Part shown: piece after piece, positions 6,443-56,014 of the stretch
How positions within the stretch are numbered: position 1 is the stretch's first letter
Layout of the letters: every line of letters begins with the position of its first letter
NCBI GenBank assembly: GCA_013151335.1
Contig: JAADIJ010000042.1
Span: 6,480-70,479, forward strand
Direction: 5' to 3'
From: Alphaproteobacteria bacterium
GTDB lineage: Bacteria; Pseudomonadota; Alphaproteobacteria; Rhodobacterales; Rhodobacteraceae
DNA length: 64,000 bases
Program-made: the position numbers and the translations under genes
Notes under the pieces: model-generated
Told to the model about the DNA's origin: nothing
Databases searched by the model: none
What the model saw: only the letters and a program-made list of their open reading frames with translations

Positions 6443-6544
6443 GCGCGCGCACTTGTATTGTGCCCGACCCAATCCCCATTTTTCAGATATACCGCCCGCG
6501 TAATGTTAGCGGGCCTCAATTTCCCAACTAAAGAAGGAGAGAAA

Positions 6545-48251: not shown

Positions 48252-49553
48252 CTAAAGAACGTAACGGCTTAAGTCGGTAGAGCGTGACAACTCGCCCAGA
48301 TTTTCCTCGACAAAATCCTCATCCACCACGACCTTGTCGCCTGCACGATCCGGCGCGGTAAAACTGATATCTTCAAACACCCGCTCAAGCACGGTATAGA
48401 GCCGCCGCGCGCCGATATTCTCGACCGATTGATTGACCTCGGCGGCAATATGGGCGAGTGCGGCGATGCCGTCTTTGGTGAACTCGACGGTCACCTCTTC
48501 GGTCGCCATCAGGGCGGTATATTGACGGGTCAGAGCGTTGTCAGTCTCGGTCAGAATACGCACGAAATCCTCTTCGGTGAGGGCGCGAAGTTCGACCCTG
48601 ATCGGCAGCCGCCCTTGCAATTCTGGCAGCAAATCCGAAGGTTTAGCGGTGTGAAAAGCGCCCGAGGCGATGAACAGCACATGGTCGGTTTTCACCGGGC
48701 CGTGCTTGGTTGAAACCGTGGTTCCCTCGATCAGCGGTAGCAAATCGCGCTGCACCCCTTCGCGAGAAACATCGGCCCCGCGAGCGTCAGAGCGCGCGCA
48801 AACCTTGTCGATCTCGTCCAGAAACACGATGCCGTTTTCCTCCACCGCTTTGATGGCCTCGCGGGTGACGATTTCTTGGTCGACCAGCTTATCGGCCTCC
48901 TCATTGATCAGCAATTGATAGCTGTCAGCGACGTTCAACTTGCGCCGCTGGGTGCGCCCGCCCATCGCCTTGCCGAACATCTCGCCAAGATTGAGCATAC
49001 CCATCCCCGGTTGCCCCGGCATATCGAGCATTTGCATCGGGTTGGAGGTGTCGGCAAATTCAAGCTCGATCATCTTGTCGTCAAGCAGCCCCTCGCGCAG
49101 CTTTTTGCGAAACATCTCGCGGGTGGTTTCGCGCGAATCAGTCCCGGCGAGCGCGTCGATCACCCGCTCTTCGGCGGCACCATGCGCGCTGGCTTTGACC
49201 TCGTCACGCATCCGTTCGCGCACCATCAAAATTGCGCTGTCAACCAGATCACGCACGATCTGTTCAACATCGCGACCCACATAACCGACCTCGGTGAATT
49301 TCGTCGCCTCGATTTTCAGGAACGGTGCATGGGCGAGCTTGGCCAGACGGCGCGAAATCTCGGTCTTGCCAACGCCGGTCGGGCCGATCATCAGGATATT
49401 TTTGGGGTAAACCTCTGCTTTAAGATCGTCGTCTAACTGCTTGCGCCGCCAACGATTTCTTAGAGCGACAGCCACGGCTCGCTTGGCATCGCTTTGTCCG
49501 ATGATAAAGCGGTCAAGCTCGGAGACGATCTCGCGCGGGGTAAGGTTTGTCAT
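48252..49553 (-). CDS. hslU: ATP-dependent protease ATPase subunit HslU
   Basis: [17 protein letters not shown], Walker [20 protein letters not shown]. Confidence 0.96.
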
Positions 49554-50110
49554 GCGTCGATCACTTCCACAGTTACGTTGCCATTGGTGTAAACACAGAT
49601 TTCAGCGGCGATTTCCAAGGCGCGGCGGGCCACTTGTTCGGCGCTTAAATCACTTCCGTCAAGGGCGCGGGCCGCTGCCAGTGCGAAGTTGCCGCCAGAG
49701 CCGATTGCGGCGATATCATGCTCGGGTTCCAGCACGTCGCCAGCACCGGTGATCACCAGCAAATCGTTGCCATCTGTGACGATCAACATGGCCTCCAGAT
49801 TGCGCAGGTATTTGTCCATCCGCCAGTCTTTGGCCAGCTCAACAGAGGCGCGGGCGAGTTGGCCGGGCGAGGCCTCAAGCTTGGCCTCCAGCCGTTCAAG
49901 CAGGGTAAACGCATCGGCGGTCGAGCCTGCAAAGCCGCAAACCACGTCAAATCCGCCCGGCGAAATCCGCCGTACTTTTCGCGCCGAGCCTTTGATCACG
50001 GTTTGCCCAAGCGTCACCTGACCATCGCCGACAATCGCAACCTGGCCGTTTTTTTTGACACCGATAATAGTCGTGCCATGCCAGCCGGGAAATTTCATGG
50101 TTTCAGCCAT
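49550..50110 (-). CDS. hslV: ATP-dependent protease subunit HslV
   Basis: [26 protein letters not shown], with the Thr nucleophile after a short propeptide. Overlaps the hslU start. Confidence 0.95.
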
Positions 50111-50177: not shown

Positions 50178-52454
50178 TTATCGCGCCTCGATTATTGCCA
50201 CAACTTCGGCGGCGATCTTCTCTTGTCGCGGCAGAATTTCTGTGGCGTCAAGTCGGGCCTGAGCGTCGTCTGCGCGACCAAGCTCGGCTAGCATACGCGC
50301 CTCAAACAGGCAGAAATCCACGTTCTTTGGTGTGAATTCAACCGCTTGCTGGGCATAGGTAAGCGCCTCTTCCAGATGGCCTTGGCGATATTTCAGGCGC
50401 GCGATCAAATTGTGAACCCGGCGCAGTGAGCCACCTTCGCGCGCCAGTTTCTCCAATCGCGGCAGATATTCGACCGGCGCGCGATAGGTCAGGATCGAGC
50501 GCACGTGTTCGACCGTGTATGGGTCAAGCCAGCCGGTCTCGTTCAGGCAGTCAAGCGACAGGGCCTCGGCCTCGTCAAACCGCTTTTCGCGCCGCAAAAG
50601 ATTGGCGTGGCGCATGGCAAAAACCGGATAATCGGCGCGACCGGGATTGGCGCGGGCGTAGTGGTCAAGCGAGGCGTCAAAATTGCGCAGCTCGTAATAA
50701 ATATCCGCCAGCAGGCCGTGATAACAGGCAATTTCAGGGGCCATCTCGACCAACCGCTCGGCGGCTTTGGCGCTGGTTTTTAGGTCGCCAGATTTGCGCA
50801 GATTCAGAACATAGCGTTGCAAAGCCATCCGGTTATCGGGGTTTTGGGTGGCCAGCGCGCGCGAAGTTTTCAGCGCCAGATCCTGATCGCCGACCTCCAT
50901 TTCGATCAGCGTGCGAAAGCTTTCAAGCGACAAAACCAGCGCATCATCGCGGCCAGTATAGCGCAAGATCGTCCGGCTGATCGCATCCTGCATGAGCCGC
51001 GCAAGACCTCCGGTTGTCAGGGTTCGAAGCATGGTGCCGAGCAGAAAATACCGCACTTCCCAGCAAAACATCCGCATATCAAACACCAGATGACCGGAAG
51101 GAGTTATGCCTTTTGTCAGACCTTTGGCTTGAAATATATTTACATCAATCGGATAAAATCGCTTTAGATCAACATCTTGAGAGGCGAAAAGCTGGCTGAT
51201 GCCATCACGGGTTTTCTTGCCAAATGGCGCAAGACAAGCGGCGCGGCGCAGCAACTCGGTTGCGGCTTTTGTGTTATCGCTGTTGATCTCCAACAGGGCA
51301 TTCATCGCGTCGGTTTCAGCAAAAACGCTGCGCTCAAACAGCATCGCATCGCGGCTTTTGGTGGAGAGCGCGCCGAGTTGTGCGCGGTCTCCGGCCTCAA
51401 AGGCAAGGTTGGCCCAGAGCAGATATAAAAACGGAACGGTGTTGCCACGCTCAATCTCGCCTGACAAAAGTTGTTGGGCTTTTTTGCCGTGGCCCGATTT
51501 GCTCAGATGTGGGACCAGATGGCCAAGGCACTGGGCGGCATCGCCGTCATTTGAGAAACTCGCGCGGTTATTTTCCAGTCGCTCGGTCAGGTTGGCAAAT
51601 GCGGCGTTCAATCGCGCGGGCGACAGATCTTCCATGATATCCAGCACCTCGATCTCGCCAATCGCGCCGGCCATCTGGGAAAAGCCGCTCATCTTTGGCG
51701 CAACGATTTTGGCGGCGCGAGACATGGCATAAAGTTCGAGAAAATCGCGCTGCAACGAATTCACCTGATCAAGCGCGATCAGATCGCCAATCAGCTTGGC
51801 TGCCGGATGGTGGTTTTTCAGCCAATCCAGCGCCTCCGGGCAGTCGCCAAAAATCAAGGCACTTGCGCCGGTGTCGTTCTGACTTTGCCGCATATGCTCC
51901 AGATAAATCTCGTTGGGAATGTATTTGGAGGCCCAGATTTTGCCGCGGGTGCGATAGTGCCGGGTCAGGTCGCCGTGGCGAACATGATAGGCAACGGGCG
52001 GGGCGGCGGCGAACACGCGGTCGATCTCTGTCATATAGGTGTGCACGGTTTCGCTGAATGAAATCAACGAGATAGCTTGGCCGTATTGCTCGGATACATC
52101 TTCTTCACTCTCGGAAATCAGCTGGGTTTTATTCATGGGGATCGAAAAAGCAAAGTTCTTGCCGCGCGCGATTTCGGCTTGCAAAGCCTCAGGTGCGAGT
52201 TTCAAAACCGTCTCGATCGGTGCGGCGCGCGCGTTCAGAGCCTTGTGCTCGGCGTCCGACAAGAAATGATCGCGGATGAATTCCTCGCTGAACAGGCTGG
52301 CGTATTCGCCGGTATTATGCGTGCCTTCAAACAACACTGGCCAGTGGATTTTGGTGTCGATGCCCAGTTCCCGGCCCAATCGAAGCGCCGAGATTATCGG
52401 CAATAGTCGCGCGCCGAGGCCGTCATTTCTAGAGACCAAAAAGCAGCCGCTCAT
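50178..52454 (-). CDS. Fucosyltransferase-superfamily-like glycosyltransferase domain (N, ~290 aa) fused to a long TPR-repeat region (C, ~470 aa)
   Basis: 758 aa. N-domain motifs SRNDGLGARLLPIISAL, AYHVRHGDL, ALIFGDCPEAL and DFLELYAMSRAAKIVAPKMSGFSQMAG resemble the three conserved motifs of the GT11/GT23 (NodZ)/O-FucT superfamily. The C-half has repeated A/Y/L-rich TPR-like helices (e.g. GLLADIYYELRNFDASLDHYARA, ARLKYRQGHLEEALTYAQQAVEF). The fold assignment is from motif memory only. Confidence 0.55.
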   Translation of the reverse strand: MSGCFLVSRNDGLGARLLPIISALRLGRELGIDTKIHWPVLFEGTHNTGEYASLFSEEFIRDHFLSDAEHKALNARAAPIETVLKLAPEALQAEIARGKNFAFSIPMNKTQLISESEEDVSEQYGQAISLISFSETVHTYMTEIDRVFAAAPPVAYHVRHGDLTRHYRTRGKIWASKYIPNEIYLEHMRQSQNDTGASALIFGDCPEALDWLKNHHPAAKLIGDLIALDQVNSLQRDFLELYAMSRAAKIVAPKMSGFSQMAGAIGEIEVLDIMEDLSPARLNAAFANLTERLENNRASFSNDGDAAQCLGHLVPHLSKSGHGKKAQQLLSGEIERGNTVPFLYLLWANLAFEAGDRAQLGALSTKSRDAMLFERSVFAETDAMNALLEINSDNTKAATELLRRAACLAPFGKKTRDGISQLFASQDVDLKRFYPIDVNIFQAKGLTKGITPSGHLVFDMRMFCWEVRYFLLGTMLRTLTTGGLARLMQDAISRTILRYTGRDDALVLSLESFRTLIEMEVGDQDLALKTSRALATQNPDNRMALQRYVLNLRKSGDLKTSAKAAERLVEMAPEIACYHGLLADIYYELRNFDASLDHYARANPGRADYPVFAMRHANLLRREKRFDEAEALSLDCLNETGWLDPYTVEHVRSILTYRAPVEYLPRLEKLAREGGSLRRVHNLIARLKYRQGHLEEALTYAQQAVEFTPKNVDFCLFEARMLAELGRADDAQARLDATEILPRQEKIAAEVVAIIEAR

Positions 52455-52457
52455 GGG

Positions 52458-53435
52458 TTACTTCTCCCGACCTGTGGGCATATCTTTTTGCGCTTCCCAG
52501 AATTTTTTACGCCGGTTTCGCAAGATTTTTTCAAGGTTAACGTTGCCAGAGGCCGCCTCTGCCGCGCGAATAATCCGGTCTGATAGTTGCCGATGGCCGC
52601 GTTCCAGCGCCAAATCCATCAGGCCGAAATAGTACCACGGCAGCAATCGTCGTTTGCGATAAAGCGCTGCAAACCGCGCGGGCGTCATGCGGTTTTCCAT
52701 GCACAGAGCGGTTACTTGTTTCAAAACCTCAGCGCGGCGTAGGAACACCACGGTTTTGTGGCCGACATAATTTGAAGGGAGATGCACGATATTTTGGCCC
52801 GAAAACCGGTCCGCGTGGCGTTTGTCGCCCTCCATATAGGGGTCATAGCAAAGGTAGACCTTGCTCGCGTCGCCGGTGTGAAGCGCGGCATCCTGATAGC
52901 GGCCCGACCAGTCTTGCCGACGGCCGCGATTGAAGCGTTTTTCCCACGGCACCAGATCCTTTTTCAGGGTCGATTGCGGCGAATAGGCGATCACGGTTGA
53001 GCCCGGTGCGAGGCCGGAAAATGCGCAGGCGGCGTACCCGCCCATCGAGGTGCCGGTGAATACTACGTGTTTGAATTGTTTGAAGAAACCTTGCGCGCAC
53101 AGCCCTTCGAGATAGTCAAACAGCACTTCGTCGCGATACCAGTTGGCGTCAAATGACAGGATGCCGAGGCTTGAATAATTGTTGTCGCTGTAGAATTTGT
53201 CGCCCCAGGTTTCGCGCGCGAGGCTGTCGTCATTGACCGACGAGAGGTTATCAAACGCTACTACCAGCCGTTTTTTGCCGCGCGCCGAATAGATCGCGGC
53301 GAATTTGTCGTAATTGACGTAAAAGCCGCGGGGTCTTTTGACGTGATCGCCGTCAACTTCACTTTTGCGCATTCCCGCCAGCCAACGCGGAGCTGAATTT
53401 GCATCGGCTGGCTTTGGAGGAGGAGATTTGGGCAT
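52458..53435 (-). CDS. Alpha/beta-hydrolase-like protein of unknown function
   Basis: 325 aa. Nucleophile-elbow-like HVVFTGTSMGGYAACAF (GxSxG), with candidate acid and His residues downstream (YDPYMEGD, YVGHKTV). Basic helical C-terminus. Ends 3 nt before the GT-TPR gene start. Confidence 0.45.
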   Translation of the reverse strand: MPKSPPPKPADANSAPRWLAGMRKSEVDGDHVKRPRGFYVNYDKFAAIYSARGKKRLVVAFDNLSSVNDDSLARETWGDKFYSDNNYSSLGILSFDANWYRDEVLFDYLEGLCAQGFFKQFKHVVFTGTSMGGYAACAFSGLAPGSTVIAYSPQSTLKKDLVPWEKRFNRGRRQDWSGRYQDAALHTGDASKVYLCYDPYMEGDKRHADRFSGQNIVHLPSNYVGHKTVVFLRRAEVLKQVTALCMENRMTPARFAALYRKRRLLPWYYFGLMDLALERGHRQLSDRIIRAAEAASGNVNLEKILRNRRKKFWEAQKDMPTGREK

Positions 53436-53500: not shown

Positions 53501-56014
53501 TCATAGGCTACGTTCAATCTCTTCAGTTTCGAAAATTTCGATCACGTCACCCTCGCGGATATCCTCGTAATTCTCAAACGCCATGCCACATTCTTGCCCG
53601 CCCTTAACCTCTTTGACTTCGTCTTTGAAGCGTTTGAGGGTTTTGAGCTTGCCGGTGTGGATCACGATATTGTCGCGCAGCAAGCGCACGCCAGCCTCGC
53701 GACGGGCGACGCCTTCGGTGACGGTACAGCCAGCGATTTTGCCGGTGCCGGTGATTTTGAACACCTCTTTGATCGAGGCGTACCCGATAAAGGTTTCCTT
53801 GATTTCCGCCGAGAGCAAACCACTTGCCGCCTGTTTCACGTCGTCAACCAGATCATAGATGATTGAATAATAACGGATTTCTACGCCTTTTTGACGCGCT
53901 GAGTCGCGTGCCGGAGCGTTTGCGCGCACGTTAAAGCCGATGATTGGCGCACCCGAGGCTTCGGCCAAGGTCACGTCACTTTCGGTGATCGCGCCAACGC
54001 CGGAATGCAGAACCCGCACCCGAACCTCGTCATTGCCGACCTTTTCCATCGCCTGAACGATGGCTTCGGCAGAACCCTGAACGTCTGATTTCACCAAAAT
54101 CGGCAACTCCGAGACGTCTTGGTCGGCCTTGGCCTTAGCCAGCAATTGGTCGAGCGTGGTGGCAGAACCTGCCGCCGCTTTTTTGTCTTTGGCGAGCTGA
54201 TGGCGATAATCGGCGATCTCGCGCGCGGCAGCCTCGTCGGCAACCACATTGAGAACATCGCCTGCTTCTGGTGTGCCATTGAGGCCCAGAACTTCGACCG
54301 GCGAGGATGGTCCGGCCTCGTTCACCCGATCTCCATTGTCGTCGATCAGGGCACGAACCCGGCCCCATTGTTCGCCAACAACAAAGATGTCGCCTTTTTT
54401 CAGTGTGCCTTTTTGCACCAGAACTGTGGCAACCGGGCCACGGCCTGTGTCAAGCTTGGCCTCGATCACGGCCCCTTCGGCGTCGCGATCAGGGTTGGCT
54501 TTCAATTCCAGCAACTCCGATTGCAGCACGATGTTTTCCAGCAGCTTATCAAGCCCCTGACCTGTGATCGCAGAGACCTCCACATCCAGAACATCGCCGG
54601 ACATTTGCTCGACGATAACCTCGTGTTGCAGCAACTCGGTGCGCACCTTATTGGCGTCGGCACCGGGACGGTCGATCTTGTTGATGGCAACAATCATCGG
54701 CACGCCTGCGGCCTTGGCATGGGCAATGGCCTCGATGGTTTGCGGCATCACACTGTCGTCGGCGGCGACAACAAGGACAACGATATCAGTCACTTGCGCT
54801 CCACGCGCACGCATCGACGTAAACGCCGCGTGGCCCGGAGTATCAAGGAATGTCAGCAATGTGCCATCATCGGTGGTGATCTGGTAGGCACCGATATGCT
54901 GGGTGATACCGCCAGCCTCGCCAGAGACCACGTTGGTTTTACGCAAGGCGTCGAGCAGCGAGGTTTTGCCGTGGTCAACATGGCCCATGATGGTGATGAC
55001 CGGCGCGCGGGGCAGCAGATCTTCGGTCGCATCATCGACAGAATCAATCGCATCCTCGACATCGGCGTCGGAGACACGCACCACTTTGTGGCCGAATTCC
55101 TCGACAATAAGTTGCGCTGTATCGGCGTCGATGGTCTGGTTCTGGGTCGCCATGATGCCGTTTTGCATCAGGGTTTTCACCACGGCGGCGACACGTTCGG
55201 CCATGCGGTTGGCCAGTTCCTGAACGGTGATTGCCTCGGGAACCTGAACGTCGCGCACGACTTTTTCATGCTCTTGGGTTTGGCCCATGGCTTGGCGTTT
55301 TTCGCGTTCTTGCGCGCGCCTCATCGCCGCCATTGAGCGTTGGCGTCCACCATCACGGCCCGAAAGCGCCTGATTGATGGTCAGCTTGCCAGAGCGGCGG
55401 CGATCGTCACCCCCCTTATTGCGTTGCTTTTTCGGCTCTTCCTTGGCGCGATCCGGTCGTTTGCTGGCCAAAGGCGAGCGCATGGGCGCGGCGGCGCGTG
55501 GCTCGCTTGCCTTGACGGGTTCGACAGGAGCAGCAGGGGCCTCGGCCTGTTCTTTGGCGGCTTTGGCGGCGGCAACTGCGCGCTTTTCCTCTTGTTCTTT
55601 TTCGCGAATGCGGTCTTCGCGTTCTTGAATCTCGCGCTCTTTTTCCTCTTTTTCTGCCCGACGCGCGTTGCGCTCAGCTTCGCGTTTGGCGGATTCAGCT
55701 TCGCGTTTGGCCGTTTCTTCGGCTTCGCGTGCTTTGGCCGCTTTCAACGCTGCCATGCGGCGATCCATTTCAGCATCGGTAATGCCGGCAGGGCGTCGCG
55801 AGGGTGCGGCTGCCGAGGGCTTGTTGCCAACCAGATTAGAGGCCGATGCCGAAGGTGGGATCGCGCCCGCCTTGGGGATGATCACCCGTTTGCGTTTTTT
55901 CTCGACCACAACGGATTTTGACCGCCCGTGGGAAAAGCTCTGACGGACATGACTCCGGTCGCCGCCACTGCGCAGGCCAAGGGGTTTGCCGGATTTGTTG
56001 TCGGAATCGCTCAT
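53501..56014 (-). CDS. infB: Translation initiation factor IF-2
   Basis: [26 protein letters not shown]. Lys/Glu/Ala-rich N-terminal region. 837 aa. Confidence 0.97.

Follow-up and report, generated by a model that had tools for sequence, protein, structure and literature searches.

This locus raises the question of what two adjoining minus-strand genes, one of them seemingly encoding a glycosyltransferase fused to tetratricopeptide repeats (TPRs), are doing between infB and hslV in a marine member of the Rhodobacteraceae. The stretch analysed (hereafter the window) is the 64,000 nucleotides from position 6,480 to 70,479 of contig JAADIJ010000042.1, in which the minus-strand gene order is rimP-nusA-ylxR-infB, a gene for a 325-aa protein (52458..53435), a gene for a 758-aa protein (50178..52454) and hslV-hslU. 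An earlier note on this DNA had described the two genes as a module of a fucosyltransferase-like domain fused to TPRs and an alpha/beta-hydrolase-like protein. Our analysis indicates that the 758-aa protein belongs to a separate, uncharacterised family inside the known fucosyltransferase superfamily (here called FucT-TPR), that the 325-aa protein is an alpha/beta-hydrolase-fold serine enzyme resembling the capsule O-acetyltransferase CsaC (here called ABH), and that the pair probably attaches modified fucose to a glycan or protein of the cell. The two reading frames lie on the same strand with a 3-nt gap (the junction reads TAA-CCC-ATG), between infB and hslVU as had been noted, and each product has homologs with E-values down to 1e-150 or below, so both can be taken as real genes.

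Single-sequence searches of Pfam, NCBIfam and the PDB gave no match in the N-terminal 300 residues of the 758-aa protein, and only family profiles and structure models identified this domain. The homologs are mostly unnamed proteins of the Paracoccaceae/Rhodobacteraceae, 640-760 aa in length and of the same architecture, and in their alignment the N-terminal domain is strongly conserved. An AlphaFold2 model of the domain (aa 1-300, 51555..52454) made with an alignment has a predicted local distance difference test score (pLDDT) of 91.4 and a predicted template-modelling score of 0.89, and when this model was compared with the PDB by Foldseek the top 50 matches were all GDP-fucose-dependent enzymes of the GT-B glycosyltransferase fold (FUT8, NodZ, POFUT1, POFUT2 and Arabidopsis FUT1), with E-values to 5e-9 and a probability of 1.00. 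An alignment and profile of the domain were made from 19 diverse family members; against PDB sequences this profile matched NodZ at 5.7e-10, FUT8 at 3e-4, a plant GT37 enzyme at 8e-3 and POFUT2 weakly, and its top 12 matches are all fucosyltransferases. When the 19 members were searched against Pfam, one reached the NodZ family (PF05830, E = 8e-4) and the only other glycosyltransferase family to appear was GT11, as a single non-significant fucosyltransferase match (E = 0.25). The fucosyltransferase-superfamily assignment made from motifs in the earlier note is thus borne out by model, Foldseek and profile, and the domain does model as a GT-B, fucosyltransferase-like fold. Since its divergence puts it beyond the Pfam NodZ model, we treat FucT-TPR as a family separate from NodZ. 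An exhaustive profile search of 1.84 billion representatives recovered 134 clusters at E <= 1e-30, a number that rises to 744 at E <= 1e-10; almost all of the family clusters are 640-760 aa long with the catalytic domain at the N-terminus. A profile search for stand-alone catalytic domains, made within a restricted length range, returned eight proteins.

The conserved residues of the domain point to an active site that is apparently intact. Across the 19 members W38, H157, R159, D162 and S256 are invariant and position 240 is always acidic, with Glu in the 758-aa protein and its near relatives and Asp in the members furthest from it. In 332 NodZ-like proteins the catalytic Arg and Asp and the GDP-binding His and Ser are nearly invariant; R182 and D275 of A. 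caulinodans NodZ correspond to R177 and D270 of the WM9 enzyme, in which H175 and S287 bind GDP (bioRxiv 10.64898/2026.10.04.756492). HMMER alignment to NodZ pairs H157 with H175, R159 with R177, D162 with D183, E240 with D270 and S256 with S287 (the last in a TSAF segment and numbered 287 by counting). The motif H157-V-R159-H-G161-D162 (51969..51986) is accordingly assigned to donor binding and catalysis from conservation and the NodZ alignment, and on the same grounds the segment from E240 to S256 (LELYAMS...SGFS, 51687..51737) is the equivalent of NodZ D270 to S287. By homology H157 and S256 would hold GDP, and R159 and E240 would serve catalysis as their NodZ equivalents do. The motifs that first drew attention to the pair were all located, GLGARL at aa 13-18, HVRHGDL at aa 157-163 and SGFSQMAG at aa 256-263 of the 758-aa protein and GTSMGG at aa 128-133 of the 325-aa protein. 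The likeness to NodZ and FUT8 comprises the GT-B fold, significant profile homology, the H-x-R-x-G...D donor motif, the GDP-binding His and Ser, the catalytic Arg and acidic residue, and a genome with a supply of GDP-L-fucose. The differences from NodZ include a C-terminal helical/TPR extension of about 450 aa that NodZ lacks and the absence of nod genes. FUT8 instead carries a coiled coil and an SH3 domain. NodZ has been called GT23's sole known bacterial representative in a recent preprint, and a catalytic domain of this kind followed by TPRs is an architecture that we have not found described. Within the GDP-fucose-dependent GT-B superfamily, the 758-aa protein would belong to the NodZ/FUT8-like (GT23-like) branch and act as a glycosyltransferase in the cytoplasm.

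Gene context was used to ask which sugar the enzyme might transfer. Distribution was sampled in 401 genomes from this bacterial family, with each genus represented by about one, and a FucT-TPR gene was found in 13. True Gmd (TIGR01472) is present in 10 of these 13 carriers as against 156 of the 401 genomes overall, and lies no more than 2 kb from the FucT-TPR gene in genomes G049, G161 and G328. The Cognatiyoonia sediminum homolog directly follows Gmd and a GDP-L-fucose synthase (Fcl) equivalog (520 bits, cut-off 500); this cluster also has a TylF-type methyltransferase, adjoins a Rep3-type replication gene (L001:1-651) and may lie on a plasmid or chromid. At three loci (L066 in G049, L004 and L074) FucT-TPR is preceded by a compact cassette of ManC, Gmd, an RfbH/ColD-like pyridoxal-phosphate enzyme and a sub-threshold Fcl-like reductase, with a TylF methyltransferase variably present. 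We take this to be the enzyme set for GDP-L-colitose (3-deoxy-L-fucose); the cassette has the appearance of a pathway to a colitose-type GDP-3,6-dideoxyhexose that has been inserted between housekeeping genes, and some members of the clade thus appear to have a colitose-type donor. At another locus (L073) ManC, a nucleotide-sugar dehydrogenase and two epimerase/dehydratase genes, a GDP-mannose-pathway set, lie beside the homolog. Since the context agrees across independent loci, a GDP-activated sugar of L-fucose configuration is a well-supported prediction for the donor. In the window's own genome a gmd gene and an Fcl equivalog (504 bits, cut-off 500) are found 45 kb upstream on the same contig (C55:4290-6383, locus L015), a short way before the window begins, between genes for a dimethylglycine-dehydrogenase-like protein and an AMP-binding ligase and with no glycosyltransferase beside them. 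This pair is the likely source of GDP-L-fucose for the module, and GDP-L-fucose would then be the most likely donor in this genome. The donor is unusually well constrained by context, to GDP-L-fucose or a colitose-type sugar, which makes the family directly testable in vitro. The same genome has a second fucose island on a 5.7-kb contig (C84; L016:1-5729), with a partial Gmd, an Fcl equivalog, two GT2 genes and an MptE/Maf-like (PF01973) gene, adjoining a DDE transposase; from its gene content it is a candidate flagellin- or glycan-modification island.

The partner protein was likewise identified from its family alignment and structure model. Single-sequence searches with ABH gave no NCBIfam match and no PDB sequence match, and Pfam Abhydrolase_6 scored 17.1 bits, under the gathering cut-off of 26.3. 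The AlphaFold model (pLDDT 91.2) nevertheless places S130, D198 and H226 at the canonical positions of a catalytic triad, and the three residues are invariant in an alignment of 40 homologs: S130 in the nucleophile elbow G128-T-S130-M-G132 (53040..53054), between strand 123-129 and helix 131-142, D198 as the candidate acid (52842..52844) directly after strand 192-197, and H226 as the candidate base (52758..52760) in a loop after strand 216-220. D204 and Q154 are also invariant, and the model has an extra C-terminal helical bundle at aa 238-317. Model and family alignment together confirm the predicted alpha/beta-hydrolase fold with a Ser130-Asp198-His226 triad, as the GTSMGG motif had suggested. 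The best Foldseek match is CsaC. Below it rank esterases, the Ag85 mycolyltransferases and one chain from Gap123, a streptococcal complex that processes a glycoprotein. CsaC is an acetyl-CoA-dependent O-acetyltransferase acting on the capsule of Neisseria meningitidis serogroup A, with a triad of S114, H228 and D198 extended by Q138 (PMC7501274). ABH shares with it the fold and a Ser-His-Asp triad (S130/H226/D198), and both are encoded beside glycosyltransferases; the invariant Q154 of ABH lies at Ser+24, the same spacing as from S114 to Q138, which is a parallel of position only. Unlike CsaC, ABH carries the C-terminal helical bundle and does not lie in a capsule locus, and no sequence homology between the two was detected (Foldseek E about 1e-5, TM-scores 0.4-0.5, with ordinary esterases similar). 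Since the protein that ABH resembles most in structure O-acetylates a polysaccharide, the suggestion that glycosylation is here combined with acylation or de-acylation fits. Most probably in the manner of CsaC, ABH would form an acyl-serine intermediate and move an acyl group to or from a sugar hydroxyl of the same product.

Whether the two genes form a unit was judged from their distribution. Of the 401 sampled genomes 320 (about 80%) have a member of the ABH family, often in two to six copies or in tandem, and at most loci it adjoins a glycosyltransferase or is fused to one: a GT92-like/GT2_4 glycosyltransferase adjoins or is fused to ABH in 16 of the best 30 matches, and among loci L033-L062 there are members joined to glycosyltransferase domains, GT92-like or other, in open frames of 650-1700 aa. 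The glycosyltransferase found at the 3' end of infB varies. In the same-genus genome G287 the order is infB-ABH-GT61-hslV, without FucT-TPR, G103 likewise has infB-ABH-GT61, and two metagenomic orthologs (57-59% identity) have infB-ABH-FucT-TPR-GT61; GT61 is absent altogether from the window's lineage. These differences indicate that ABH is the conserved element after infB, where it is syntenic in several genera, and that the neighbouring glycosyltransferase is the part that is swapped. Five loci, representing two or more different genomic sites, have ABH and FucT-TPR side by side, among them G190, in which they lie inside a cluster with two GT92-like glycosyltransferases and a sulfotransferase. 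At locus L069 the two genes are divergent, with FkbM-type methyltransferases nearby, and a GT92-like family and a 315-aa unknown family are common to the Cognatiyoonia sediminum, G190 and L069 clusters. No ABH gene was found within about 9 kb of FucT-TPR in G049, G177, G319 and G328. Two further neighbours were tested as possible members of these families and rejected: an unannotated 422-aa Paracoccus protein encoded after FucT-TPR (L002:10199-11467) is not an ABH, and a 313-aa neighbour in G049 does not belong to the shared unknown families. As the adjacency recurs in at least two sites, the gene order argues for functional coupling of ABH and FucT-TPR, neither being dependent on the other. 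The idea of a dedicated two-gene module does not survive this comparison, ABH being widespread and paired with unrelated glycosyltransferases and FucT-TPR being rare and often without ABH. The pair would rather be one variant of a swappable decoration cassette consisting of ABH and a variable glycosyltransferase (GT61, GT92-like or FucT-TPR).

The acceptor that we favour is a glycan of the cell envelope (for instance an O-chain of lipopolysaccharide, a capsule or some other glycoconjugate whose assembly genes lie elsewhere in the genome), a reading to which we assign a probability of about 0.55, its chain-terminator variant (below) included. The nearest sequence relatives of the catalytic domain, NodZ and FUT8, act on oligosaccharides, and CsaC, the best analogue of ABH, acts on a polysaccharide. 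Sugar-tailoring genes recur as neighbours (TylF and FkbM methyltransferases, sulfotransferases and GT92-like glycosyltransferases), and the swapping of cassettes among close relatives resembles surface-glycan diversification. Colitose is not known outside O-antigens and capsules. A further analogy is offered by Nod factors, on which the fucose added by NodZ is decorated by NoeI (methyl), NolL (acetyl) and NoeE (sulfate). In the same way O-methyltransferases, the acyl-transferase-like ABH and sulfotransferases accompany FucT-TPR across its loci. It should be noted that this is an analogy only: the partner enzymes are of other families (NolL is a membrane acyltransferase and not an ABH), and no gene for chitooligosaccharide synthesis is present.

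Several observations weigh against this assignment of enzyme and acceptor. The Foldseek TM-scores of the N-terminal domain are only about 0.5 with identities of 10-15%, identity to NodZ and FUT8 is about 12-14%, the window protein does not itself reach the Pfam NodZ family, and its catalytic acid is Glu where NodZ has Asp. For ABH the Foldseek E-values are modest (1e-5) and plain esterases score nearly as well as CsaC, so that ABH may be either a transferase or a hydrolase. Most carrier genomes show no linkage of ABH and FucT-TPR. Of the three findings that the earlier note had named as telling against it (a different fold, unlinked genes and an implausible triad) none is fully realized, the domain modelling as GT-B, the triad being plausible and the linkage partial. 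No flippase, polymerase, exporter or other polysaccharide-assembly gene lies beside any FucT-TPR cassette examined, and sugar-nucleotide genes with a single glycosyltransferase and a TPR fusion would also fit a protein-glycosylation system. Activity, donor and acceptor of FucT-TPR are moreover predictions from homology and context.

The C-terminal part of FucT-TPR is where a protein acceptor has to be considered. The earlier note had counted about 470 aa of TPRs; Pfam supports an array at aa 514-740 (50235..50915; TPR_16, TPR_19, TPR_2 and TPR_14), the helical, TPR-like middle region at aa 313-420 (51195..51518) has no Pfam match and aligns with the C-terminal block at an hhalign probability of 62-66% in several registers, which is moderate, and aa ~430-510 form a conserved linker that is without repeats in the family alignment. 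PDB sequence matches of the 758-aa protein are the TPR parts of OGT and designed TPR proteins, the OGT match being confined to aa 561-716. Docking of the enzyme on its acceptor, or on its partner enzymes, would be the task of this helical/TPR part of some 450 aa. In joining a TPR array to a GT-B domain within one cytoplasmic protein, FucT-TPR recalls OGT and SPINDLY (SPY), both GT41, and FlmG of Caulobacter, a likeness of architecture only. SPY is a protein O-fucosyltransferase (PMC9715652), and the TPR domain of FlmG is the flagellin-binding module of its TPR and GT-B enzyme (PMC7591256). The analogy with OGT drawn earlier therefore stands for the TPR part and fails for the rest, as the catalytic domain is NodZ/FUT8-like and not GT41 and the order is reversed, with the catalytic domain N-terminal in FucT-TPR and C-terminal, behind the TPRs, in OGT, SPY and FlmG; from FlmG it also differs in that several carriers lack flagellin.

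It is possible, though in our view unlikely, that the TPRs bind a specific cytoplasmic or pre-export protein, which the NodZ-like domain O-fucosylates and on whose sugar ABH then adds or removes an acyl group, a bacterial analogue of FlmG, OGT or SPY on a different catalytic fold. Besides the FlmG precedent, such a role is consistent with cassettes made up of sugar-nucleotide genes and one glycosyltransferase without genes for polymer assembly or export, with the presence of the protein O-fucosyltransferases POFUT1 and POFUT2 among the structural matches of the N-terminal domain and of a chain from the glycoprotein-modifying Gap123 complex among those of ABH, and with RTX-type secreted proteins near two clusters. 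It fits less well with the lack of any conserved candidate target next to the genes, with the absence of flagellin from several carriers, with closest relatives that act on oligosaccharides, with distant family members in which Pfam detects few TPRs or none, and with sulfotransferase, GT92-like and methyltransferase partners that are typical of glycan tailoring. The more specific proposition, that FucT-TPR is a cytoplasmic protein O-fucosyl or O-colitosyl transferase choosing its substrate by its TPRs, with ABH O-acylating the attached sugar, we hold to be doubtful; if true it would be the first bacterial protein-glycosylating enzyme on the NodZ/FUT8 fold and a convergent counterpart of plant SPINDLY. 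The RTX calcium-binding repeat proteins, one of which has a Hint domain, are encoded at L064:14043-15947 (G190) and L071:13572-15008, a few kb from ABH/FucT-TPR clusters, and their position may be a coincidence or a pointer to a secreted protein target.

The recurrent methyltransferases might point to a special case of the favoured envelope-glycan acceptor. One family member of 951 aa (P0038) has a TylF/Methyltransf_24 domain fused at its C-terminus after the TPR region, paralleling the separate methyltransferase gene that adjoins FucT-TPR at other loci. FucT-TPR might terminate O-polysaccharide chains produced by the pathway that uses an ATP-binding cassette (ABC) transporter, capping their non-reducing end with a single fucose-type residue, often O-methylated or O-acylated, and its long helical C-terminus might by analogy be a scaffold or ruler like that of WbdD. 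The recurrence of an adjacent or fused TylF-type O-methyltransferase, the single glycosyltransferase in each cassette and ABC2-type transporter genes near some loci would all suit such a cap. We nevertheless consider it improbable, since the proposal rests purely on analogy, the window's two genes have no methyltransferase next to them, and a direct tie to an O-antigen cluster is nowhere seen. TylF gave no match in the window's own genome, in a search in which the control matched nowhere either, so that this negative carries no weight.

Flagellin, as the acceptor of an FlmG-like or Maf-like glycosylation module, is a far less probable answer, in spite of the precedent of FlmG as a TPR and glycosyltransferase enzyme (PMC7591256). 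The window genome has one long flagellin (535 aa), and GT61, the alternative partner at this site, was matched in Caulobacter alone among 14 control genomes. Flagellin was however not found in the carriers G049, G161 and G328 (99-100% complete), and G190 and G319 gave only marginal matches; because of the first three genomes it is not a general target, and we reject it as such on phyletic grounds. No flagellar neighbour was present at any locus examined, and the C84 island, with its MptE/Maf-like gene, two GT2 genes and gmd-fcl, is the better candidate for flagellin glycosylation in the window genome.

The locus has a wider bearing. FucT-TPR is a coherent bacterial family in which the catalytic core of NodZ/FUT8 is retained and followed by a TPR-type C-terminus, and which lies outside the Pfam NodZ model, and ABH, for which Pfam and NCBIfam have no model, is a second unannotated family habitually fused to or beside glycosyltransferases, which may be a general module for O-acylation or de-acylation of glycans in marine Rhodobacteraceae. 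With its changing content (ABH with GT61, FucT-TPR or both), the cassette that follows infB looks like a small hotspot of surface-glycan diversification, relevant to the interactions of roseobacters with phages, grazers and hosts. The comparison of hslV and infB in relatives that had been proposed to reveal an accessory insertion shows instead a constant ABH after infB and an exchanged glycosyltransferase (GT61 in the same-genus G287). We reject a recent foreign insertion on account of the normal GC content (0.55 in the two-gene stretch and 0.57-0.58 in the flanks, which is unremarkable) and of the synteny of ABH after infB in several genera.

The flanks are otherwise ordinary. In the window infB lies at 53501-56014 beside the ABH gene and hslV-hslU, which overlap, at 48252-50110 beside the FucT-TPR gene. 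Between infB and hslV a consensus scan detected neither a terminator on the minus strand nor a strong promoter, which fits read-through without being evidence for it; as no terminator intervenes, joint transcription of the pair with the flanking operons is possible. As the earlier note had reported, polysaccharide-export and flagellar genes are absent from the neighbourhood, none occurring within about 6 kb in the window or in the Pfam-annotated syntenic locus L005. Two further conserved or inserted genes were seen in related loci. A protein of about 580 aa with 61% identity between Paracoccus and Loktanella and a faint HAD match is encoded near ABH genes (L070:11151-12908 and L071:15072-16808), and in G287 a 365-aa multi-pass membrane protein with no Pfam match (L063:12359-13456) is inserted between hslV and hslU.

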